Assembly (NCBI GenBank): GCA_034003985.1
Contig: JAVEXP010000002.1
Coordinates: 11,206-75,205 of the forward strand
DNA length: 64,000 bases
DNA from: Patescibacteria group bacterium
Lineage (GTDB): Bacteria > Patescibacteriota > Patescibacteriia > Buchananbacterales > UBA6539
Reading direction: 5' to 3'
The number at the start of each line of letters is the position of its first letter. The stretch's first letter is position 1. Below, piece after piece: positions 1,738 through 39,131 of this stretch. A program made the position numbers and the translations under genes. The notes under the pieces are model-generated. The model was given only the letters and a program-made list of their open reading frames with translations. It searched no databases and was not told where the DNA came from.

Positions 1738-2082
1738 AATCATAAGTATTGTCATATCCTGACTTTACCGGAGCCCAAAGCTTAATTGCCGCGGGCTTCT
1801 TTTTTTGCCCTTTTGACCGATCTGGCCTGTGACTGTTATAATGTAGATAACTTCACTTCCGAAAATTGGTTAAAGTTTTGGGACAAACTTTATCAGTAGG
1901 GATTCAAAATCGTCATTAGCCTTTGGCTGGTTGACTGCGATCCCCAACGCCAAATGCGACGCGCCAAGCGCCTAGAAAGTCTTAATTGATCTTCTTAGCG
2001 GGCGGCAACTCGACAGGGCAGGCTGAATACAGCCAAAAGCTTTGGCCAGTTTGGAGTGGAGTTTAGGTTTTCAAACTTGCTC

Positions 2083-5641: not shown

Positions 5642-6070
5642 ATGCCAACAATCAATCAATTATTGAGAAAAAAACGCAAATCTAGCGCAAAAAAAGCCAA
5701 GACCCCGGCGATGCGGGTGGTTTCTAATACTTTGCGCCGCAAAAAACACGAGCTCCCTAAGGGTTCGGCTTTTAAGCGGGGGGTTTGTCTTAAAGTTACT
5801 ACCATGACTCCCAAGAAACCTAACTCAGCACTACGAAAGATTGCTAGAGTTCGGCTTTCCAATGGCATGGAAGTCACCGCTTATATTCCCGGCGAAGGCC
5901 ATAATCTGCAGGAACACTCCGTGGTTTTGTTGCGCGGCGGCCGGGTTAAGGATTTGCCGGGTGTTCGCTACCATATTGTTCGGGGCGTTTATGATACGGC
6001 CGGCGTCCAAGGACGCAAACAGGGCCGCAGTCTTTACGGCGCAAAACGCGAGACCAAGGCTGCCAGTTAA
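5642..6070 (+). CDS. rpsL: 30S ribosomal protein S12
   Basis: [13 protein letters not shown]... is the canonical S12 N-terminus. The C-terminus is slightly extended. Confidence 0.95.
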
Positions 6071-9291: not shown

Positions 9292-10482
9292 ATGGCCGAT
9301 AAATTTGAACGAAGCAAACCTCATTTGAATGTCGGTACCATTGGTCATGTTGACCATGGTAAGACTACTTTGACGGCAGCTTTGTTAGCCTACCTCAACA
9401 AAAAGGGGATGAAAGCTTCAAACAAGTCCGTTGATCAAATTGATGGTGCTCCCGAAGAGCGTGAACGCGGTATTACCATTGCTACTGCCCATGTTGAGTA
9501 TGAAAGTGAAAACCGCCATTATGCCCATATTGACTGTCCGGGTCACGCCGACTATGTCAAAAATATGATCACTGGTGCAGCCCAGATGGATGGTGCGATT
9601 TTGGTTGTCGCTGCTACCGATGGTCCAATGCCTCAGACTCGTGAGCACATTCTTTTGGCTCATCAGGTTAATGTTCCGGCCATGGTTGTGTTTTTGAATA
9701 AAGTCGACCAGGTTAAAGATCCAGAACTAATTGACTTGGTTGAAGAAGAAGTTCGCGATTTGTTAAAGAAATATGAATTCCCGGGAGATGAAATCCCAGT
9801 CATTCGCGGTTCCGCTTTGAAAGCTTTGGAAAATCCGGAAGATCCGGAAGCTACCAAACCAATGGAAGAATTGGTCAAAGCTTTGGATGAATATATCCCT
9901 GAACCGGTTCGCGATACTGAAAAACCTTTCCTATTGCCGATTGAAGATATTTTCTCCATCGAAGGTCGCGGTACTGTTGCCACCGGCAGAATTGATCGTG
10001 GTATTATTAAGCTTAATGACGAAGTTGAAATCATTGGCTTGCGACCAACCCAAAAGACGGTTGTTACCGGTATTGAAATGTTTAACAAGTCTTTGGATGA
10101 GGGTCGGGCCGGTGATAATGCCGGTTTACTGTTGCGTGGCACCAAGAAGGATGATATTGAACGCGGTCAAATTTTGGCCAAGCCGGGCAGCATTACTCCT
10201 CATACTGAATTCGAAACCAAAACTTATATTTTGACCAAAGAAGAAGGTGGCCGACACAGTCCTTTCTTCAAGGGTTATAAGCCACAATTCTATATTGGCA
10301 CGGCTGATGTTACTGGTGATGTTGAATTGCCGGAAGGTACGGAAATGGTCATGCCTGGTGATACCGTTAACTTGAAGATCAAGTTAATCAAGCCAGTGGC
10401 TTTGGAACAGAATCAGCGATTTGCTATCCGCGAAGGTGGTCGAACTATCGGTGCTGGTGTAGTAACTAACATTACTAAGTAA
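9292..10482 (+). CDS. tuf: elongation factor Tu
   Basis: [25 protein letters not shown] motifs. 396 aa. Confidence 0.97.
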
Positions 10483-23956: not shown

Positions 23957-24514
23957 ATGGCTTCATATCAAGCTCAGGGAATTGTTTTAAAACAAACTGA
24001 TCATCAGGAAAATGATCAGCTTTTTACTATTTATACCCAGCAGCTTGGCAAAGTGATTGCTTTGGGGCGAGGGACTAAAAAAATTAACAGTAAACTTAAT
24101 TCCCATCTTCAACCTTGGTCGGTTGTTAATTTGCTGATTGCCAAAGGCAAAAACTACGATCATGTCGCCGGCGCGGTGATGATTAAAAATTTTTCAAATT
24201 TACGAACTGACCTTAAAAAAATTGTTTTAGCCAGCTTTGCTTTGGAAGTCATTGACAAATTGACCAAGACCGAAGAGGCTGATGACAAAATTTTTAATTT
24301 ACTTTTAAAATATTTGTTTGTCTTGGATACTAATGATTTTTCCCAAGTCGACTGGCAGTTGATTAAAAAAGCTTTCACTGTTAAGTTGCTGACACTCTTG
24401 GGATTTGGCCCAAGTCAAAATATCATTAATGATGATTTTAAATTGGATGATTTTTTAACCAATCAGCTTGAGTCTGAGCTTAAAACTAAGCGTTTTTTTT
24501 CTTATTTAAGCTAA
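23957..24514 (+). CDS. recO: RecO-like DNA repair protein (short form)
   Basis: N-terminal OB-fold region resembles RecO (QGIVLK...GRGTKK...LQP). Low similarity overall. Confidence 0.5.
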   Translation: MASYQAQGIVLKQTDHQENDQLFTIYTQQLGKVIALGRGTKKINSKLNSHLQPWSVVNLLIAKGKNYDHVAGAVMIKNFSNLRTDLKKIVLASFALEVIDKLTKTEEADDKIFNLLLKYLFVLDTNDFSQVDWQLIKKAFTVKLLTLLGFGPSQNIINDDFKLDDFLTNQLESELKTKRFFSYLS

Positions 24515-24524
24515 GTTTCAAGTC

Positions 24525-24553
24525 TTGACTTATATTTAGGTTTGTAGTAAAAT
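24525..24553 (+). promoter_or_regulatory. near-consensus sigma70 promoter (TTGACT - 17 nt - TAAAAT) for the GC-rich island gene
   Basis: Read directly. Followed by AGGAGG at 24561-24566. Confidence 0.45.
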
Positions 24554-24575
24554 AGACCGAAGGAGGTTGTGAACA

Positions 24576-25892
24576 TTGACAACCTTGGAATTAACGGCAC
24601 GAGCCGTTATTTTTTTGTGTCATTTTGGCAGGAAACTGGCAGGAAACCTAAACGGAGGATCAGCAGGTATGCCGAATTCAAAGAAAAAAGCAGCAGTAAC
24701 AGTCAAAGCGGAAGACCTTGGAAAGTGGTATCCGCTTGACCCCTACGCCCAAGGGTTCATGGACATGGCGATGGAGAATGGAGGCTTCATCAACTTCCAT
24801 AGCCATCTTGATCGGGCTTACACCTTGGCTCCGGAGTACCTGGAGCACATCGGGACAACGCCCCTGGAAATGGCTGGCGCTCCGCTGACCGTCAAGCAGC
24901 AGGCGGTGGGTAATATCCATCGCGGCAAGGCCTATACCGAAAGCGACTTGCGCGACCGGGTATCCTTGGTCTTGCGCCACTTGATCGCTTACGGTACCAC
25001 GGAGTGTTGGACCTGCGTCGATACCTGTCCGGGCATCGCCGAAGAAGGTCTCTTGGCCTGGCGGGTGATGCGGGAGCTTCGGGAGGAATTCCACGACCGG
25101 ATTGTTCTCAAAGTGGGACCGAGTCCGATTTTCGGTCTCAAACAGGGCAGCGGTCGTTGGGAAACCTATCAGGCCGCCGCGCAGTCGGCCGATTTCTTGA
25201 CGGGGTTGCCGGAAAAGGACGATTTTGATGTCAATAATGGCCGTCTTCATCGCGACGGCAAGGTTGGTTTCGAGCAGCATGTTCGGCGTTTGGTGCAATT
25301 GGCTTGTGACAGCAATAAGGAGCTGCATCTCCATTTGGACCAGACCGGTGAACCGACCGAACACGGCACCTTCCGCACCATTGATGTGATCGATACGATG
25401 GAGCAGGAGGTGATCGACTGGGTGATTGGTGATGGCATTCATCCCAAGATCTGGGCGGTTCACATGTTGTCGCCGTCCTCGTATTCCGAGGAGAAGTTCC
25501 GGCGCTTGCTTGATGCCCTGCTGCGCCTGAATATCGGGCTGATCGTCTGCCCGACGGCGGCGGTGTCGATGCGCCAGCAGCGTCCGGTGATGGTGCCGAT
25601 GCACAGTAGCATCGCACGGATGCTGGAGTGTCTGAAAGTTGGTGTCAAAGTCCGGTTCGGATCGGACAACATCAACGACATGATGGTTCCCGCGGGTGAC
25701 GGTAACATGTGCACCGAGATTTTGCGGGTAGGAACCCATGTACTGCGCTGCTATCTGTCGCAGGTGTTGTCCAAGTTGGCCGCCGGCGTTGCCCTCAACG
25801 AAGTTGACCGCGCCCGGATCGGCAACGCTCTGTACCAGGACCGGCAAGCCTGGGCCAGACTCAACCCCGGATTCCAAGCGGCGGTCGAATAA
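24576..25892 (+). CDS. amidohydrolase superfamily protein, cytosine-deaminase (CodA)-like
   Basis: INFHSHLD (HxH), LHLHLDQTGE, VHMLS, and FGSDNINDMMVPAGDGNM aligning with the CodA FGHDDVFDPWYPLGTANM region. About 60% GC. TTG start with AGGAGG RBS; an alternative ATG start lies at 24669. Confidence 0.7.
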   Translation: MTTLELTARAVIFLCHFGRKLAGNLNGGSAGMPNSKKKAAVTVKAEDLGKWYPLDPYAQGFMDMAMENGGFINFHSHLDRAYTLAPEYLEHIGTTPLEMAGAPLTVKQQAVGNIHRGKAYTESDLRDRVSLVLRHLIAYGTTECWTCVDTCPGIAEEGLLAWRVMRELREEFHDRIVLKVGPSPIFGLKQGSGRWETYQAAAQSADFLTGLPEKDDFDVNNGRLHRDGKVGFEQHVRRLVQLACDSNKELHLHLDQTGEPTEHGTFRTIDVIDTMEQEVIDWVIGDGIHPKIWAVHMLSPSSYSEEKFRRLLDALLRLNIGLIVCPTAAVSMRQQRPVMVPMHSSIARMLECLKVGVKVRFGSDNINDMMVPAGDGNMCTEILRVGTHVLRCYLSQVLSKLAAGVALNEVDRARIGNALYQDRQAWARLNPGFQAAVE

Positions 25893-25914
25893 GACCGTGT
25901 TCCTTGCCTACCAG

Positions 25915-25962
25915 CTCCGTTTCGTTCAACCTACGGGTTAGACGAAACGGAGTATTTTTTTA
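25915..25962 (+). terminator. rho-independent terminator (CTCCGTTTCGT...ACGAAACGGAG + TATTTTTTT)
   Basis: Read directly, 23 nt after the amidohydrolase stop. Confidence 0.6.
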
Positions 25963-26004
25963 TAAAAAATTTGACCTAGCCGAAGTTATAGCGACGGCTA
26001 GGTC
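25961..26004 (-). terminator. stem-loop GACCTAGCC...GGCTAGGTC, followed on the minus strand by a T-rich run; terminator for the convergent minus-strand ORF
   Basis: Read directly. Confidence 0.4.
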
Positions 26005-26030
26005 GTATGAGGGGGGGGGTGAGGGTTGGC

Positions 26031-26309
26031 TTAGCTTGCGCTCCCGAACAGGGGGGAGTTGCCGATATGGACGAAAACGAGTCGTCTGTCGTCGCTCCCG
26101 GGTTCGGGAATGGTGACTTCGTTTCGCACATGGGCGTTCTCCTTCTTGCTGGTTGCATGGGCGTTGGGCCTCCCTTTGATGGCCAGGAGCTCTTCTTGCG
26201 ACACACTGAGTGTCTTGTCGTCTTGCCCCATGGCCTGTCGAATGAGCTGGCAACACCTGCTTGTGCAGGCGTTGACTCCGCGAGAACTGGCGTGGGTTTG
26301 GGTAACCAT
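26031..26309 (-). CDS. small hypothetical protein (92 aa) in GC-rich island
   Basis: GGAAAGGAGAA RBS 6 nt before the ATG. Third-codon-position GC is high, matching the island. Terminator hairpin downstream. An alternative plus-strand ORF (26067..26345, with a GGGGGGAG RBS) cannot be excluded. Confidence 0.35.
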   Translation of the reverse strand: MVTQTHASSRGVNACTSRCCQLIRQAMGQDDKTLSVSQEELLAIKGRPNAHATSKKENAHVRNEVTIPEPGSDDRRLVFVHIGNSPLFGSAS

Positions 26310-26477
26310 GCTGGTTCTCCTTTCCTCAGTAATTGGGCTTTTTAGTAAAGCCCGGCTGCGGTTATTCTGAGAAGTTCATCATAGCTCATAATGATTTTTT
26401 TGTCAAGGTTCATGGCTTGCCAAAGAGCCCATATTTAGGTAGAATAAAGTTATTAATTAGCTAATTTTTTTATTTTT

Positions 26478-27932
26478 ATGTCCAGAATCGCCATTGCGGA
26501 GGTGGTCGAAAAAGCCGGTCAAAAAGTAACGGTTTCAGGCTGGGTTCATGCCCGCCGTGATCATGGCAAGATTATTTTTATTGATTTGCGCGATCGTTCG
26601 GGGCTACTTCAGATTGTATTTGAGCCAAAATTTGAGCAGGCCCATACCTTAGCCAATAATCTTCGTTCGGAATTTGTGGTGGAAATTCAGGGTAAGATCA
26701 ACAAGCGTCCGGATAATATGATTAACGATAAAATCCTTACCGGCACAGTGGAAATGACTGGCGAAGACTTAAAAATTTTAAACGAAGCCAAAACTTCGCC
26801 TTTTGAAATTGATAAAGATACCAGCGATGTTGGCGAGGAAATCAGGCTCAAATATCGTTACTTGGATCTGCGGTCAGAGCGGATGAAGAATAACATGGTA
26901 ATGCGTTATCGGGTAACTAAGTTTATTCGCGATTATTTGGACAATCAGGGATTCTTGGAAATTGAAACCCCGATTTTAACCAAAGGCACGCCTGAAGGCG
27001 CCAGAGAATTTTTGGTTCCTTCCAGAATTTGGCCGGGACAGTTTTATGTTTTGCCCCAATCGCCCCAGCAGTTCAAGCAGCTTTTAATGGTGGCTGGCGC
27101 AGAAAAATATTTTCAGATTGCCAGATGTTTCCGCGATGAAGACACCAGGGGAGATAGGCAGGCCGAATTTACCCAGCTTGATCTGGAGATGAGTTTTGTT
27201 GAACAAGAAGATATTTTTCAGCTGATTGAACCAATGATGATCGAATTGGTTGAGACACTGTATCCTCAGAAAAAAATTACGGCCAAGCCCTTTCCTCGGC
27301 TGACTTATGCGGAGTGTATGGAAAAATACGGGACCGACAAGCCTGACTTAAGAAAAAATAAGGAAGATGGCAATGAGCTGGCTTTTATGTGGCTGATTGA
27401 CCCGCCGATGTTTAAATATTCTGAAACCGAAAAAAAACTGGTGGCCAGTCATCATCCTTTTACTATGCCTAATTTGGAAGACATGGAAAAGAATCCAGAC
27501 CAGCCTAGAGAGTGGCGAGCTTATGGTTATGACTTGGTTTTAAATGGTTTTGAAATTGCCGGCGGCTCAATCAGAATCCACCGTCGTGATATTCAGCAAA
27601 AAATCTTTGAGCTTTTGGGAGTTGGCCAAAAAGAAATTGAATCCAGGTTCGGCCACATGCTTGAAGCTTTCAGCTTCGGTGCGCCGCCTCATGGCGGGAT
27701 TGCCCCGGGTATTGATCGGATTATGGCGATTTTGCAGAATGAGCCCAACATTCGAGAGGTGATTGTATTTCCTAAAACCGGGGACAGCCGTGATTTGATG
27801 ATGGGCGCGCCAAGTCCAGTTAGTTCCAAAGCTTTGAAAGAGGCTAATGTCAGGATATCCGATGAAGCCATTGCTCAAGCCAAGGAAAAAGGAGAAAATC
27901 TCGAAGGTTTTGATACGGCCATGGCCGATTAA
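26478..27932 (+). CDS. aspS: aspartyl-tRNA synthetase, bacterial-type catalytic core but short (484 aa, apparently lacking the GAD insertion domain)
   Basis: N-terminal OB domain, motif 2 FRDEDTRGDRQAEFTQLDLEMSF, motif 3 GGIAPGIDRI. Confidence 0.9.
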   Translation: MSRIAIAEVVEKAGQKVTVSGWVHARRDHGKIIFIDLRDRSGLLQIVFEPKFEQAHTLANNLRSEFVVEIQGKINKRPDNMINDKILTGTVEMTGEDLKILNEAKTSPFEIDKDTSDVGEEIRLKYRYLDLRSERMKNNMVMRYRVTKFIRDYLDNQGFLEIETPILTKGTPEGAREFLVPSRIWPGQFYVLPQSPQQFKQLLMVAGAEKYFQIARCFRDEDTRGDRQAEFTQLDLEMSFVEQEDIFQLIEPMMIELVETLYPQKKITAKPFPRLTYAECMEKYGTDKPDLRKNKEDGNELAFMWLIDPPMFKYSETEKKLVASHHPFTMPNLEDMEKNPDQPREWRAYGYDLVLNGFEIAGGSIRIHRRDIQQKIFELLGVGQKEIESRFGHMLEAFSFGAPPHGGIAPGIDRIMAILQNEPNIREVIVFPKTGDSRDLMMGAPSPVSSKALKEANVRISDEAIAQAKEKGENLEGFDTAMAD

Positions 27933-34792: not shown

Positions 34793-34868
34793 GCCGAGAT
34801 AGCTCAGCTGGTAGAGCGCATCCATGGTAAGGATGAGGTCCCGGGTTCGATCCCCGGTCTCGGCTCCA
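34793..34868 (+). tRNA. tRNA-Thr (anticodon GGT)
   Basis: Manual fold: GCCGAGA acceptor, anticodon loop ATGGTAA, T-arm CCGGG-TTCGATC-CCCGG, CCA encoded. Confidence 0.85.
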
Positions 34869-34881
34869 GTAAAAAAATATT

Positions 34882-34967
34882 GGGTCGGTACCGAAGCGGT
34901 CAAACGGGGCTGACTGTAAATCAGCTGGCTTATGCCTTCGGCGGTTCGAATCCGTCCCGGCCCACCA
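34882..34967 (+). tRNA. tRNA-Tyr (anticodon GTA, long variable arm)
   Basis: Manual fold: anticodon loop CTGTAAA, 14-nt variable arm, CCA encoded. Confidence 0.85.
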
Positions 34968-34972
34968 GGTTT

Positions 34973-35047
34973 GCCGGGGTAGCTCAACGGTAGAGCAGCA
35001 GTTTTGTAAACTGTTGGTTGGGGGTTCGATTCCTCTCCCCGGCTCCA
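34973..35047 (+). tRNA. tRNA-Thr (anticodon TGT)
   Basis: Manual fold: GCCGGGG acceptor, anticodon loop TTTGTAA, GGGGG-TTCGATT-CCTCT T-arm, CCA encoded. Confidence 0.8.
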
Positions 35048-35077
35048 GTAGGGTATTAATTCTAAAGCATTTGTCGT

Positions 35078-35233
35078 ATGTCACAAGACAACATGATTAA
35101 AATGGAGTGCACGGAATGCAAAAGAGTCAATTATTTTTCACGCAAGAATAAGAAAACTCTTAAAGACAGACTTGAGTTGAAAAAGTATTGTAAGCATTGC
35201 AAAAAGCACACCGCTCACAAAGAAACTAAATAG
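35078..35233 (+). CDS. rpmG: 50S ribosomal protein L33
   Basis: 51-aa [54 protein letters not shown], matching the L33 Zn-ribbon consensus. Below the ORF-track length cutoff. Confidence 0.8.
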
Positions 35234-35235
35234 AC

Positions 35236-35316
35236 CATGCAAATTGTCATTCTGGGCGCAGCGAAGAATCTCTTTGATTCTTCGGTCACTTCGTTCCCTC
35301 AGAATGACAATTTGGT
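35236..35316. repeat. palindromic element: 16-bp perfect inverted repeat CCAAATTGTCATTCTG / CAGAATGACAATTTGG enclosing GCGCAGCGAAGAATC; related to the 3001-3080 repeat
   Basis: Read directly. Lies between rpmG and tRNA-Trp. Confidence 0.7.
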
Positions 35317-35318
35317 AT

Positions 35319-35392
35319 GGGGGCGTAGTTCAACAGTAGAACGGCGGTCTCCAAAACCGCAGACGAGGGTGCAACACCTTCCGCCCCTGCCA
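35319..35392 (+). tRNA. tRNA-Trp (anticodon CCA)
   Basis: Manual fold: GGGGGCG/CGCCCCT acceptor, anticodon loop CTCCAAA, CCA encoded. The T-loop is atypical (TGCAACA). Confidence 0.7.
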
Positions 35393-35500: not shown

Positions 35501-36424
35501 ATGTCAAGCACAGCTCCAAGTCAACGAGAAAAAGAAAATAACCAAGGATCAACGCCGCAAGGCTTAACCCGGCTTTTAGAAGAATTGCATGAATACGATG
35601 ATTATTATAATGTAGGCGCAATTATGGGGCGAATTATAAAAAAAAGTATACCGGAGAGGTTCAATGAATCTGATGAAAGTAAAGGCGAAGAATTGTCAGT
35701 TGAAAATTTGCGACGACGAAACATAGAAATTTTGGATGATGCCGGACTGGAGTTGCAGCCTGTAGCAACGGGAGCGTTGACTACTGCAGATCAAGAGGGT
35801 ATTCCAGAAAAGAAAAGAGGGTCTACAATGCGTCTTAATTTGCAGGATGGAAAAAAATTTGTTTCATATTTAGGCAGGCTAAATCCTGATATGATGAATG
35901 ATAATGACCGGGGAACCTTAGAAGAGATGGCTAATATTTTAACAGTACAATTAAAGGGTCAGTATAATTTGGAAAGCGCTGATGACCGGTTGTTAGAGTT
36001 AATGGGAAACCTAGATGAAATTATCCAAGAGTACAAAAGGCTTGGTGCGGGTGATTGTGTGGTTGATCTTGAGAAAATTTTAGAGAAAGCCCGCGAAGGA
36101 GCATTACGAGAATATATGATGGCTGAAAAATTAAATTTACACAAACCTTTTAGAAAAGAAGGTTTTATTTTAAATTGGCAGCAGGATATCACACCTGGTG
36201 GATTGGAAGAAAAATGGAATAATGTTCTTGATACGCTTCATCAAATAAACCAAAATCCGAAAGCAAAGGATATTTACGCCCAAGCGGTTTCGACGGCCAA
36301 GGAGGCAGTTAGTAACGCGATTGCAGAAGTTTTGGCTTGGAAAAAAGATTATTATTTAAGCACTAGTAACGAGGTTTACCTTGGTATTTTAAGGGCCGTT
36401 GAAAATAAATTATCAGAGTTTTAA
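35501..36424 (+). CDS. hypothetical soluble protein (307 aa)
   Basis: Long ORF with protein-like composition. No family recognised. Followed by a 290-bp AT-rich gap. Confidence 0.5.
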   Translation: MSSTAPSQREKENNQGSTPQGLTRLLEELHEYDDYYNVGAIMGRIIKKSIPERFNESDESKGEELSVENLRRRNIEILDDAGLELQPVATGALTTADQEGIPEKKRGSTMRLNLQDGKKFVSYLGRLNPDMMNDNDRGTLEEMANILTVQLKGQYNLESADDRLLELMGNLDEIIQEYKRLGAGDCVVDLEKILEKAREGALREYMMAEKLNLHKPFRKEGFILNWQQDITPGGLEEKWNNVLDTLHQINQNPKAKDIYAQAVSTAKEAVSNAIAEVLAWKKDYYLSTSNEVYLGILRAVENKLSEF

Positions 36425-36715
36425 TTAAGTTAATATAATAATTAGACTTAATATTTAATTCGGGCAATACGATGTCAATTTCTAGGTTTTTTTATTTTTT
36501 AACGAATTTGAAATATCGAGTTTTTTGTTTTTGAATTTGAGTTTTGATTCAGCAGATTTATATTTTAATATATTTGTCGAATAGTTAATTATTAGTTAAT
36601 CTGAATTAACTAGCTCGGTTTTGTTTGTCATATTTTGTGTTATAACTAAACCATGAAAAAGATTTATATAATTTCTGCTATCACTAATCACTACCAGAAG
36701 TAGATAAGTGTATTT

Positions 36716-37360
36716 ATGAAAAAGATTTTAATTTTGTCTATTGGCTTTATTCTTGTCGTCATTATTTTTATAGTATTAGTCAATATTAATATTAACAAAT
36801 TTGGGAGAAATATTTGCAATCAGGATAATCTGAATAAACAAGCCGCTTTAGTCTTAGGTGCCAAGGTCTATGATAGCGGCCAGATGAGCGATATTTTTAG
36901 AGACAGGGTTCAAACAGCTGTTGGGTTGTATAAAGAAGGTAAGGTGGAAAAGATTTTAGTCAGTGGCGACCATGGCCGAAAAGATTATGATGAAGTAAAT
37001 TCAGCCAAAGAATATTTATTGGAAAATGGAGTTAACCAAAATGATATATTTTTAGATCATGCCGGTTTTGATACTTATGACAGTTTGTATAGGGCTAAAT
37101 ATATATTCCAGGTGCAGTCGTTAGTCATAGTAACTCAAGCCTTTCATTTATCCAGGGCTTTGTATATTGCTGATAAATTGGGGATTGAATCGTGTGGAGT
37201 GAGTGCTAATCTTCATAGATATTATGGAGAGGAGGCTATGAATAGAAGGGAAACTTTAGCAAAGGTTAAGGCCTTGTTTGATGTTATTTTTAATTCAAAA
37301 CCAAAATATCTAGGTGGTGCTATACCTTTATCAGGAAGCGGATTAAATAGTTGGGATTAA
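36716..37360 (+). CDS. SanA/YdcF (DUF218) family membrane-anchored protein
   Basis: N-terminal TM segment and an ILVSGDHGRKDYDEV-type DUF218 core. Confidence 0.65.
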   Translation: MKKILILSIGFILVVIIFIVLVNININKFGRNICNQDNLNKQAALVLGAKVYDSGQMSDIFRDRVQTAVGLYKEGKVEKILVSGDHGRKDYDEVNSAKEYLLENGVNQNDIFLDHAGFDTYDSLYRAKYIFQVQSLVIVTQAFHLSRALYIADKLGIESCGVSANLHRYYGEEAMNRRETLAKVKALFDVIFNSKPKYLGGAIPLSGSGLNSWD

Positions 37361-37374
37361 TTATCCAAAGAATA

Positions 37375-37692
37375 ATGATTATGAAGAAAAAATCTTTTTT
37401 ACCAATAGTTGCAGGTTTAATAGTTGCATCTCTTGATTTAGCTTTTTGGATTTGGTTTGTAGCTTACGGTTTATTACATTCTCGCCCTGGTATATTTGAA
37501 GAAGGACTTTTAGGGATGGTGATTTTTCATATGCCGGCATCCATTCTCTTACCTACTTTAGGGTTATCAAGTGATTCTATTATCCCGCAAACTGTTTTTC
37601 TTTTTGTGGTTGGCCTTGGACAATATTTTATATTCGGTTATATATTAGGGCGTATAATTTTATTTTTTAAGAAAAAGTTTAAAAAAATATGA
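37375..37692 (+). CDS. small hypothetical membrane protein
   Basis: 3 TM segments. Overlaps the neighbouring genes by a few nt, suggesting an operon. Confidence 0.4.
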   Translation: MIMKKKSFLPIVAGLIVASLDLAFWIWFVAYGLLHSRPGIFEEGLLGMVIFHMPASILLPTLGLSSDSIIPQTVFLFVVGLGQYFIFGYILGRIILFFKKKFKKI

Positions 37693-39131
37693 AGAAATTT
37701 AAACCGGTAATTTTTACTTCCCTGATTTGCGCCGTCTTGTTTTCGTTGGTAACGATTTTGATTTCACATCTGGACTGGCCTTTTATTCCTTATTTGATTA
37801 TGGCGGGTTTGTTTATGGTCTGGGTGCAACCTGAAAAGGTCAGCTATAAATTTTTGGATAAACTGTTGGCTGGTTCTTTAATTTTTGGTTTTTTAATGAC
37901 TGCTTTAATTTTTCTGCGGATGTATTTGATGTCTCGTTTGGTTTATGCCTCGCCGCTTCCTTTTAATTTATTATGGGACAGCGATACTGTTGTTTTAGCT
38001 TTAGTCTATGCTTTCCTCAGTTTTTTGGGTGGGCTATTGGGTATATTTTTCAAAGGGCTTTACTTATTATATCAGACCAAGCTTGACTGGGTGATTGTTA
38101 TCCTTGGCTCGTTATTGACAACCCTGTCATCTTTGGCGGTTTTTAAAGTCAAGATTGGCGGGACGATCATGAGCGGTTATTATGGTCTGCCTTATTCTTA
38201 TTTTACCTATCAAATTAAAGATGTCCTTGATGGTTTTGCCATTGATAAGTTGATTTTTTCGCCGGGCAGTTTGTACCATTACATCGTCTTTGATTATTTA
38301 TTGTATCTGGCATTGTTTCTGGTGGTTTATTTTGGCGCTGTCCAAGTTAACAAAAGATTAACCAGTTGGAAAATAAACGCCACTTATTTGTTGTTTGGTC
38401 TATCTCTGTTTTTGATAACGGTTTTTATTTCTTTCCTGCCAATAAAACAATCATTTATTTCTTATCGGATTGCCATGGCCAGTTCTTGTCAGGTTGATCC
38501 TGATTGTGTGATTATTGCTAACCGTTTGCCATTCAGCTGCGCGATTGTGGTTAACCGGGACAATGCCGAAAGAATTTTAAAACTGGTTAATTCTTTTCCG
38601 TCAACCGGTGAATTGCAATGTTTGGGAAACGAAAAAGCTGTTTGCTTGGACCGCCGTTGTCAAGTGGCACTTGATTATAATTCCAATCAGGTAGGGGAGA
38701 ACAACGATTTATGGCGAATTTTTGTTGATGAGGTTCAAAAAATTAGTTTTAGCTACCCCAAAAAATTAACCGCTCAATATATTAGTACCGTTGATTGGCC
38801 ACCAGTTGTTACCCTTTCCGATAGTGTCCATCAATTAATTTGTGACGAAACTTCACCGGAAAGTAGTTTGCCACAAAGGGTTATGCGCCGGCAAGTTGAT
38901 GACCGAATTTATTGTGTTGAAGCTTTAAGCGAAGGTGCGGCCGGGTCGGTTTACACCCAGTATTCTTATTCAACCATTTGGGATGAAAAGCTTGCTACCA
39001 TTAGTTTTACGCTACAATTTCCGCAGTGCTATAATTATGATGAGCCAGCCCAAACCAATTGTAAAAAAGAACGCGAATCCTTTGATTTGGATGGAATAGT
39101 TGACCGAATTATCGCTAGCCTGAAAAATTGA
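37689..39131 (+). CDS. hypothetical membrane protein with N-terminal polytopic domain and C-terminal Cys-rich extracytoplasmic domain
   Basis: About 8 TM segments, then about 200 aa with about 12 cysteines. Confidence 0.5.
   Translation: MKKFKPVIFTSLICAVLFSLVTILISHLDWPFIPYLIMAGLFMVWVQPEKVSYKFLDKLLAGSLIFGFLMTALIFLRMYLMSRLVYASPLPFNLLWDSDTVVLALVYAFLSFLGGLLGIFFKGLYLLYQTKLDWVIVILGSLLTTLSSLAVFKVKIGGTIMSGYYGLPYSYFTYQIKDVLDGFAIDKLIFSPGSLYHYIVFDYLLYLALFLVVYFGAVQVNKRLTSWKINATYLLFGLSLFLITVFISFLPIKQSFISYRIAMASSCQVDPDCVIIANRLPFSCAIVVNRDNAERILKLVNSFPSTGELQCLGNEKAVCLDRRCQVALDYNSNQVGENNDLWRIFVDEVQKISFSYPKKLTAQYISTVDWPPVVTLSDSVHQLICDETSPESSLPQRVMRRQVDDRIYCVEALSEGAAGSVYTQYSYSTIWDEKLATISFTLQFPQCYNYDEPAQTNCKKERESFDLDGIVDRIIASLKN

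Follow-up and report, generated by a model that had tools for sequence, protein, structure and literature searches.

A GC-rich amidohydrolase cassette between recO and aspS is probably a long-resident two-gene unit of one group of Patescibacteria

The pyr operon of Bacillus subtilis, with PyrR, and the pyrBI operon of Escherichia coli are pyrimidine operons with terminator-containing leaders. Within the amidohydrolase superfamily of metal-dependent hydrolases, AtzC differs from CodA in having His219 for Glu217, Asn304 for Asp314, and Lys65 for Thr66 (PMC4577212). These are the closest described counterparts of a locus that lies in a 64-kb stretch of a Patescibacteria genome (contig JAVEXP010000002.1; this whole stretch of 64,000 nucleotides is called the window below). 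There, a GC-rich island between recO and aspS holds a gene for an amidohydrolase-superfamily enzyme and, convergent with it, a gene for a small orphan protein. The original prediction, made from the sequence of the window, regarded this cassette as a recent horizontal acquisition. We consider it probable, though well short of certain, that the cassette is instead a long-resident two-gene unit typical of one Patescibacteria group and that its high GC content is maintained, not a relic of a donor.

The island, which extends from ~24650 to 26300, has a GC content of 0.54 to 0.61 vs 0.32 to 0.46 on either side (300-nt windows), so the compositional contrast with flanks of about 40% had been recognized correctly. 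Its placement was also correct: the neighbor on one side is recO (Pfam RecO_N and RecO_C), and that on the other side is aspS, encoding a class II aspartyl-tRNA synthetase. In a survey of GC content at third codon positions (GC3) that covered the 72 open reading frames (ORFs) of at least 100 aa in the window, the enzyme gene is the strongest outlier (0.68 to 0.71 vs a median of 0.41; robust z, 5.1). As predicted, the cassette is self-contained, comprising its own promoter, the enzyme gene, back-to-back terminators, and the convergent small gene.

More than 240 homologs of the enzyme were found at 43 to 58% identity, mostly in Patescibacteria, and the cassette occupies the same recO/aspS site in four lineages, namely, that of the window, L002/L004, L005 (Buchananbacteria), and L125. 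The nearest relative, L002/L004 (enzyme, 58% identity), has the same convergent small ORF at this site, and the L002 island, which includes pyrK and pyrD, has a GC content of 0.53 to 0.55 vs 0.35 to 0.40 outside. The L005 enzyme is 55% identical, and its cassette has the two-gene form of the window. The two-gene form is also present in the more distant L125, where a 439-aa enzyme call probably corresponds to P0044 (49% identity). L125 was found by a profile search with the small protein; a metagenome scan of the recO/aspS site gave L004-type and L005 copies only.

Cargo and flanks are similarly diverged. Between the window and L002, identity is 58% for the enzyme, 59% for recO, 61% for map, 70% for adk, 74% for ruvX, and 83% for aspS, and across the lineages the cargo is 49 to 58% identical, similar to its flanks (recO, 51 to 59%; map, 61%). 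At fourfold-degenerate sites of conserved amino acids, identity is 0.36 to 0.40 in the cargo and 0.32 to 0.49 in the flanks, compared with an independent expectation of 0.26 to 0.30; synonymous sites are near saturation and diverged to a similar degree in both. A neighbor-joining tree of 81 sequences resolves three clades (other bacteria, DPANN archaea, and Patescibacteria), and the Patescibacteria subclades track three syntenic contexts, recO/x/aspS, rmuC-L21/x/methyltransferase, and x/alaS. The closest homologs outside Patescibacteria are 33 to 42% identical to the enzyme.

No signature of mobility was found at the island, that is, no integrase or transposase, no adjacent tRNA (the nearest ones in the window are 2.9 kb and 34.8 kb away), and no meaningful flanking repeat; the neighbors are housekeeping genes. 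Flanking direct repeats were considered as att sites and discarded, the only candidates being 12- to 13-nt T-rich matches that coincide with functional elements; the repeats at the borders are short, AT-rich, and due to chance. A phage or plasmid vector was also discarded, since INPHARED gave no phage match and the best plasmid match is 37% identical. Viral contigs contain only relatives of 24 to 31% identity over full-length matches and one 64-residue fragment at 44%, and PHROGs and PADLOC returned nothing meaningful. The AT-rich regulatory DNA of the cassette itself (promoters, leader, and terminators) is conserved between lineages. Given the shared site in four lineages, the similar divergence, the near-saturated synonymous sites, and the lack of mobility signatures, a recent horizontal acquisition is not borne out, and homologs with similarly elevated GC, which the original prediction had itself named as counterevidence, were indeed found in the same lineage.

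Across genomes, the enzyme gene has a higher GC3 than its neighbors at 19 of the 23 Patescibacteria loci (median difference, +0.12; Wilcoxon p = 3e-4) and the highest of all at 15 of these loci; for DPANN archaea and other bacteria, the medians are -0.04 and +0.03, respectively. Because synonymous sites are saturated between the lineages, the excess looks like a maintained state rather than a donor relic. It is not the usual effect of expression, because GC3 is only 0.36 to 0.46 in the ribosomal-protein block and in the elongation-factor gene at 9292-10482 (396 aa; taken as EF-Tu by its size and position only). A third-position GC excess that is gene-specific, confined to Patescibacteria, and outlasts synonymous saturation is not predicted by standard amelioration models. 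If the cassette is as old as we think, a sharply bounded GC-rich island that brings a promoter and terminators of its own can look fresh and yet be old, and composition alone misleads in scans of Patescibacteria genomes.

The features of the cassette are collected in Table 1. The enzyme had been predicted as a 438-aa protein starting from TTG 24576. This ORF exists mechanically, but the real gene encodes 407 aa, as indicated by the NCBI call for an identical protein (407 aa), by the N termini of homologs, which align to ATG 24669, and by the GGAGG ahead of this codon; the 31 additional codons of the TTG form would cross the leader hairpin and the intrinsic terminator. With the start at ATG 24669, the AGGAGG at 24562-24567, which had been assigned as the ribosome-binding site (RBS) of the enzyme, is therefore a leader element. 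The predicted rho-independent terminator of the enzyme gene is present, and folding revealed terminators equivalent to those of the enzyme gene and the small gene in L002 and L005. An antisense ORF of 399 aa (24678-25877) was rejected as an overlapping gene, since in-frame antisense stops are so few in the window copy only (1 vs 3 to 21 in the homologs); this long ORF is a by-product of the GC3 of 0.71 in the enzyme gene. The L125 enzyme (1999..1850, minus strand) has a Lys/Pro-rich N-terminal extension of ~45 residues with KKPGKK-type repeats, and Patescibacteria copies commonly have shorter basic N termini (MRKKAPLKK...).

Table 1. Features of the recO/aspS cassette, with positions in the window
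Feature	Position	Strand	Remarks
Sigma-70-type promoter, TTGACT-17-TAAAAT	24525-24553	+	10 of 12 consensus positions
Purine-rich AGGAGG followed by inverted repeat GGTTGT-N8-ACAACC	24562-24584	+	~+5 to +30 of the predicted transcript
Intrinsic terminator within the leader, stem TAACGGC/GCCGTTA followed by T7	24592-24618	+	Terminator scan and folding
Tandem duplication, TGGCAGGAAAC x2, perfect	24626-24647	+	Leader; window-specific, absent from other lineages
Enzyme RBS, GGAGG	24654-24658	+	10 nt ahead of ATG 24669; read from sequence
Enzyme gene, 407 aa; probable barrel-only metal-dependent hydrolase (amidohydrolase superfamily; "HxxQ / DN" subgroup, AtzC/CodA branch)	24669-25892	+	
Enzyme intrinsic terminator, 13-bp stem (25914-25952) followed by U7	25914-25961	+	-27.2 kcal/mol, z -6.2; inverted repeat
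Small-gene intrinsic terminator, 10-bp stem GACCTAGCCG/CGGCTAGGTC followed by U-run	25964-26004	-	-19.3 kcal/mol, z -6.9
G9 homopolymer (C9 on the minus strand)	26011-26019	.	3' untranslated region of the small gene
Small orphan protein gene, 92 aa, convergent with the enzyme gene	26031-26309	-	Homologs at the same position and in the same orientation
Small-gene RBS (GGAAAGGAG on the minus strand)	26317-26325	-	Read from sequence
Small-gene promoter, TTGACA-17-TATGAT	26378-26406	-	11 of 12 consensus positions

The near-consensus promoter of the enzyme gene stands as predicted. Its TTGACT -35 box is identical in all recO/aspS lineages (window, L002/L004, L005, and L125), just past the recO stop codon, and no further terminator lies between recO and this promoter, which would drive a leader of ~110 nt. 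At the 5' end of the leader, a GGAGG-like run is present in all four lineages. The GGTTGT-N8-ACAACC inverted repeat that follows is unique in the window (1 match vs 0.04 expected) and is present in three of the four lineages, with arms that are retained in L005 and nearly so in L002 (ACAATC). It folds as a hairpin (leader hairpin 1) and may alternatively be a DNA operator; its conservation suggests a protein recognition site in either form. The intrinsic terminator of the leader is situated between the promoter and the start codon, ahead of the RBS. At the equivalent position, the L002 and L005 leaders have a differing stem sequence and T8, i.e., the structure is conserved without the sequence, and the L125 leader has two AACGGC/GCCGTT stems, the second of which is followed by a T-run. 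Because an intrinsic terminator precedes the RBS and the start codon, expression of the enzyme from its own promoter would require read-through. The same terminator would probably also end the upstream ribosomal-protein/secY/adk/map/ruvX/recO operon, so that the leader would be an insulator and probably also a regulated attenuator.

The order of promoter, structured leader, and intrinsic terminator before the first gene (pyrK in L002) resembles that of the pyr/PyrR and pyrBI leaders. Unlike those, the leader matches neither the PyrR family nor any other family of Rfam, has no conserved leader peptide, and shows no evident antiterminator in the window. The scan of the window with Rfam 15, which includes PyrR, gave no gathering-score match except tRNAs, and at E <= 10 only chance eukaryotic-type matches appeared in 24400-26500; a conserved short ORF that could serve as a leader peptide was not found across the four leaders. 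A four-segment attenuator considered for L125 is a doubtful candidate, since the minimum-energy fold nests the segments and offers no clear choice between terminator and antiterminator. A sigma-54-like promoter (TGGCAG-N5-TGGCA) was dropped, as it is the window-only tandem duplication, which resembles -24/-12 elements by chance and is absent from L002 and L005; the duplication itself is probably incidental.

The small convergent gene had been predicted with a strong RBS and a terminator of its own, both of which are present, and it has its own promoter too. This promoter and that of aspS (26417-26445) are arranged back to back, and L002, L005, and L125 share the TTTGTCAAG...GGTTGCCA block; a TTGACA promoter and an RBS for the small gene are present in each lineage. 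The terminators of the small gene and the enzyme gene stand back to back as well. Homologs were identified in L002/L004 (P0121), L005 (P0123), and L125 (P0160). The coding strand, described earlier as ambiguous, is settled by the minus frame being the best in all three cross-lineage pairs (E = 1e-8, 3e-4, and 5e-7; the best plus-frame match has an E value of 1e-3). Public calls conflict, with a 112-aa plus-strand ORF (26007-26345) in one pipeline and a minus-strand protein of 66 aa from Met27 (P0122) at the Joint Genome Institute (JGI); conservation of QLIRxA upstream of Met27 favors the 92-aa form. In the 3' untranslated region, the G10 run reported at 26013-26022 is actually the shorter run of Table 1. 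It is the sole G or C run of at least 8 nt in the window, is missing from L002 and L005, and could differ in length among reads.

The small protein was rightly called unassignable. Its family is tiny: 5.8 billion proteins yielded three clusters, and 1.84 billion representatives, searched exhaustively, yielded five. Its gene adjoins the enzyme gene wherever context is available. The protein is 79 to 92 aa long across lineages, and its structure model (predicted local distance difference test [pLDDT], 77.9) has the topology alpha-beta-alpha-beta-beta-beta. Because R76 is the only invariant polar residue, a binding or regulatory role seems more likely than an enzymatic one. The beta-alpha-beta-beta-beta module of vicinal oxygen chelate (VOC; glyoxalase/bleomycin-resistance) proteins has conserved metal- or ligand-binding His and Glu; a metal-binding role of this type is unlikely for the small protein, as the candidate His residues are not invariant.

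Pfam contains no family that matches the window enzyme at E <= 1, and only a few homologs have a precomputed or weak PF01979 match. The best NCBIfam profile is NF005365 (PRK06886, "hypothetical protein"; 327 positions), which shares the barrel-only amidohydrolase architecture. However, the enzyme scores 139.7 bits (E = 1e-40), far below the cut-off of 340, and is thus not a member of this family, which is itself uncharacterized and functionally uninformative; a Bauldia homolog matches the profile at E = 1e-45. The NCBIfam cytosine-deaminase models give 59, 44.7, and 40.5 bits vs cut-offs of 403, 438, and 483. In the structure model (pLDDT, 86.5; predicted template modeling score [pTM], 0.88), the enzyme is a (beta/alpha)8 barrel only, with helices at both termini and no beta-sandwich, and the nearest structures are those of the triazine hydrolase AtzC (N-isopropylammelide isopropylaminohydrolase; PDB 4CQB and 2QT3) and the cytosine deaminase CodA (EC 3.5.4.1).

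Residue conservation was assessed in the 81 sequences of the three clades. The metal ligands H44, H46, H265, and D333 are invariant (81/81), and H222 is present in 78 of 81 (Gln in three copies from the candidate phyla radiation [CPR]); all five align to the CodA ligands (HxH after strand 1, His after strands 5 and 6, and Asp after strand 8). Q225, at the position of CodA Glu217, is Gln in all 81 sequences and in 35 viral relatives, with H-L-D-Q aligning to H-C-D-E. N334, directly after the metal ligand D333, is also invariant (81/81), as are the basic residues R49, K76, R97, K217, R302, R317, and R360. CodA Gln156 aligns to Ile154 of the enzyme in a sequence alignment only. A conserved carboxylatable Lys was not found, K183 being Arg in archaeal and other bacterial copies. 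A binuclear center via E182 was rejected because viral relatives have Ser or Asp at this position, and assignment as a dihydroorotase was ruled out on structure and ligands. The viral relatives, of ~305 aa and 24 to 31% identity, are encoded on contigs of giant-virus metagenome-assembled genomes and on very large viral contigs of up to 375 kb (IMG/VR, L084-L119), and they retain the pattern of HxH, a basic residue (Lys) at +3, H, Q, H, and D-N.

Like AtzC, the enzyme would have one metal bound by HxH, His, and Asp, next to an essential second-shell His (the equivalent of AtzC His249 is present and invariant). Both also have an Asn following the metal Asp (D303-N304 in AtzC and D333-N334 here) and, at the third position after HxH, a basic residue (Lys65 in AtzC, Arg49 here, and Lys in the viral relatives), and both lack a Glu at the position of CodA Glu217. 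The enzyme resembles AtzC at two of the three positions that discriminate AtzC from CodA, a partial likeness that entails membership of neither family. Since AtzC itself lacks the Glu, its absence from the enzyme does not exclude aminohydrolase chemistry. The enzyme differs from AtzC in overall sequence (16% identity; local match, E = 0.02), in Gln225 for His219, in Ile for AtzC Gln160, and in having no accessory beta-sandwich domain in its model; furthermore, AtzC evolved recently as a catabolic enzyme, whereas the family studied here is ancient and widespread. In common with CodA and 5-methylcytosine deaminase (PDB 1K6W and 4R7W), it has the metal ligands and the equivalent of His246, and it departs from CodA in Glu217 to Gln, Asp314 to Asn, Gln156 to Ile, and the missing beta-sandwich domain. 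The original prediction of a CodA-like amidohydrolase, perhaps acting on nucleobases or triazines, is therefore right as to the superfamily, with AtzC and CodA as the nearest structures, but "CodA-like" does not hold beyond the level of the fold (Gln225, Ile154, and NCBIfam scores below cut-off).

The enzyme probably belongs to the AtzC/CodA branch as a metal-dependent hydrolase with a mononuclear center; it consists of the barrel only and has Gln in place of the catalytic Glu. It would most likely cleave a C-N bond of a small polar or anionic heterocycle of the pyrimidine or triazine type (or an amide), and a plausible role would be pyrimidine salvage or turnover. With it, a large unnamed amidohydrolase subgroup is delimited, marked by the barrel-only fold, the Gln that replaces the deaminase Glu, and the Asp-Asn pair as in AtzC. 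This HxxQ subgroup, for which there is no Pfam model, ranges over Patescibacteria, DPANN archaea, Planctomycetota, Verrucomicrobiota, Alphaproteobacteria, and giant-virus contigs, and it is a defined target for function discovery in salvage-dependent organisms. Our literature search found no paper that mentions PRK06886 or links the enzyme family to Patescibacteria.

Genomic context is a weak functional clue only. In L002/L004, the same leader drives pyrK, pyrD, and then the enzyme gene, and this pyrD encodes a bona fide class 1B PyrD (328.8 bits vs a cut-off of 269). Most Patescibacteria and DPANN copies of the enzyme gene stand alone among housekeeping genes. At 37 loci of Planctomycetota, Verrucomicrobiota, Proteobacteria, and Myxococcota (L039-L083, e.g., L050 1957-4992 and L061 11118-13874, and L122 10087-12708), the homolog adjoins a gene, usually on the same strand, for a ~900-aa protein with AMP-binding (adenylation) and phosphopantetheine-carrier domains and a C-terminal GTSAGG alpha/beta-hydrolase-like region without a Pfam match. 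Glycosyltransferases, sulfotransferases, and ABC exporters are encoded around this partner. In L002, a direct repeat of ~35 to 40 nt (GTCGTAGT-A/G-AAGAAACCCGGCAGCAACA...; 5850-6000) brackets a spacer of ~90 nt from the end of pyrD to the start of the enzyme gene, in which a 30-aa ORF is called; the repeat may be the scar left when a rearrangement brought pyrK-pyrD and the enzyme gene together or parted them.

How the cassette came to its site can be explained in several ways. The abrupt change in GC is the one feature that suggests an assembly chimera, in which a GC-rich fragment of another organism was joined into a low-GC contig. Such an artifact, for which the original prediction advised a check, is extremely unlikely because the window and an independent Logan assembly made from the same run (SRR25572339) are identical over 13,224 nt, both island junctions included. 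Moreover, the same architecture recurs in three further samples and lineages, and the regulatory DNA on both sides (promoter and leader upstream, divergent promoters downstream) is conserved and continuous with recO and aspS. A recent acquisition from a GC-rich donor, whose composition would persist un-ameliorated, would account for the strong contrast with its sharp borders, for a unit that brings its own promoter and terminators, and for the GC richness of the entire L002 island, pyrK and pyrD included. We give it only a slight chance, for the cassette sits at one site in four lineages between flanks as diverged as the cargo, and with synonymous sites near saturation a donor signature should have decayed. 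Nor is there a plausible source among the sequences searched, the homologs outside Patescibacteria being distant and no close copy occurring on viral contigs, phages, or plasmids; an integrase, a tRNA, and a flanking repeat are missing, and even the AT-rich regulatory DNA of the cassette is shared between lineages. An ancient acquisition followed by gene flow within Patescibacteria, through homologous recombination via the conserved flanks and with biased conversion or a GC-richer source keeping GC3 high, is unlikely but has an appreciable chance. It agrees with a GC3 excess that is specific to the Patescibacteria copies and occurs in at least three unrelated syntenic contexts, and with a second GC-elevated metabolic block, containing a 3-deoxy-D-arabino-heptulosonate 7-phosphate (DAHP)-synthase-like gene, that behaves alike in the window genome and a relative. 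It fits less well with gene-tree subclades that track synteny and with a cargo no more similar between lineages than the flanks, by which no recent exchange is visible in the sampled genomes.

As for function, the enzyme might be a non-canonical dihydroorotase or a cyclic amidase of the dihydropyrimidinase type that works with PyrK and PyrD, given its place as the third gene of the leader-pyrK-pyrD-enzyme operon in L002/L004 and its many invariant Arg and Lys residues, which suit a carboxylate-bearing substrate. We regard this as improbable, because a conserved carboxylatable Lys is lacking (neither K183 nor E182 is kept throughout) and because pyrK and pyrD are missing from the three other recO/aspS lineages and from all other loci. 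Rather unlikely, too, is a more far-reaching proposal, in which the cassette would be a regulated module for pyrimidine-type salvage or detoxification, made of parts that lack characterized relatives: an HxxQ enzyme catalyzing a reaction new to the superfamily, a terminator-containing leader read by a trans-acting factor, and coding sequences with a GC3 actively held above that of the genome. The small protein would then possibly be the factor that binds the GGTTGT/ACAACC repeat, and the force that holds GC3 could be mRNA selection or GC-biased conversion tied to frequent exchange among Patescibacteria; if this were true, the gene would mark an otherwise invisible process in reduced genomes. 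We prefer the reading of a long-resident two-gene unit with maintained GC content, whose enzyme would serve pyrimidine salvage or turnover, and several points weigh against it. It does not by itself account for the force maintaining high GC3, for which mRNA selection and recombination-linked biased conversion are candidates. Vertical inheritance is deduced from synteny, divergence, and the gene tree of the enzyme, and repeated replacement via homologous recombination among related Patescibacteria may have taken place. Folding of the window leader gave no evident antiterminator, so that regulated attenuation is only putative. No substrate is known for any member of the family, and the homolog of a cultured strain, Gemmobacter aquarius, is a "hypothetical protein" in RefSeq. 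The link to pyrK-pyrD is seen in one of the four recO/aspS lineages and in none of the other ~20 Patescibacteria loci, and the ~900-aa partner among glycosyltransferases in bacteria other than Patescibacteria points to a different kind of substrate.

Other stretches of the window also deviate in composition. The window begins inside another GC-rich block (1-1740), which contains a 154-aa ORF (101-565) and the DAHP-synthase-like gene (583-1737; GC3, 0.59; z, 3.3). The product of the latter belongs to a small Patescibacteria-specific clade of 42 to 73% identity and is at most 33% identical to canonical DAHP synthases. In L123 (GCA_028688055.1, 1-7119), the DAHP-synthase-like gene is at the same position, upstream of an inositol-monophosphatase gene, and the block is larger (GC, 0.50 to 0.53 vs 0.40 to 0.46), with two LeuA/HMGL-like genes and three unknown ORFs in addition. 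The group may in general have metabolic blocks of elevated GC at conserved sites. The window is most AT-rich at 36000-38000 (GC, 0.32 to 0.34), shortly downstream of four clustered tRNA genes (Thr, Tyr, Thr, and Trp; 34793-35392). This stretch, in which GC3 is 0.30 for the ORF at 36716-37360 and 0.22 for that at 37351-37692 (z down to -3.7), fits the classical picture of foreign DNA better than the GC-rich island does.

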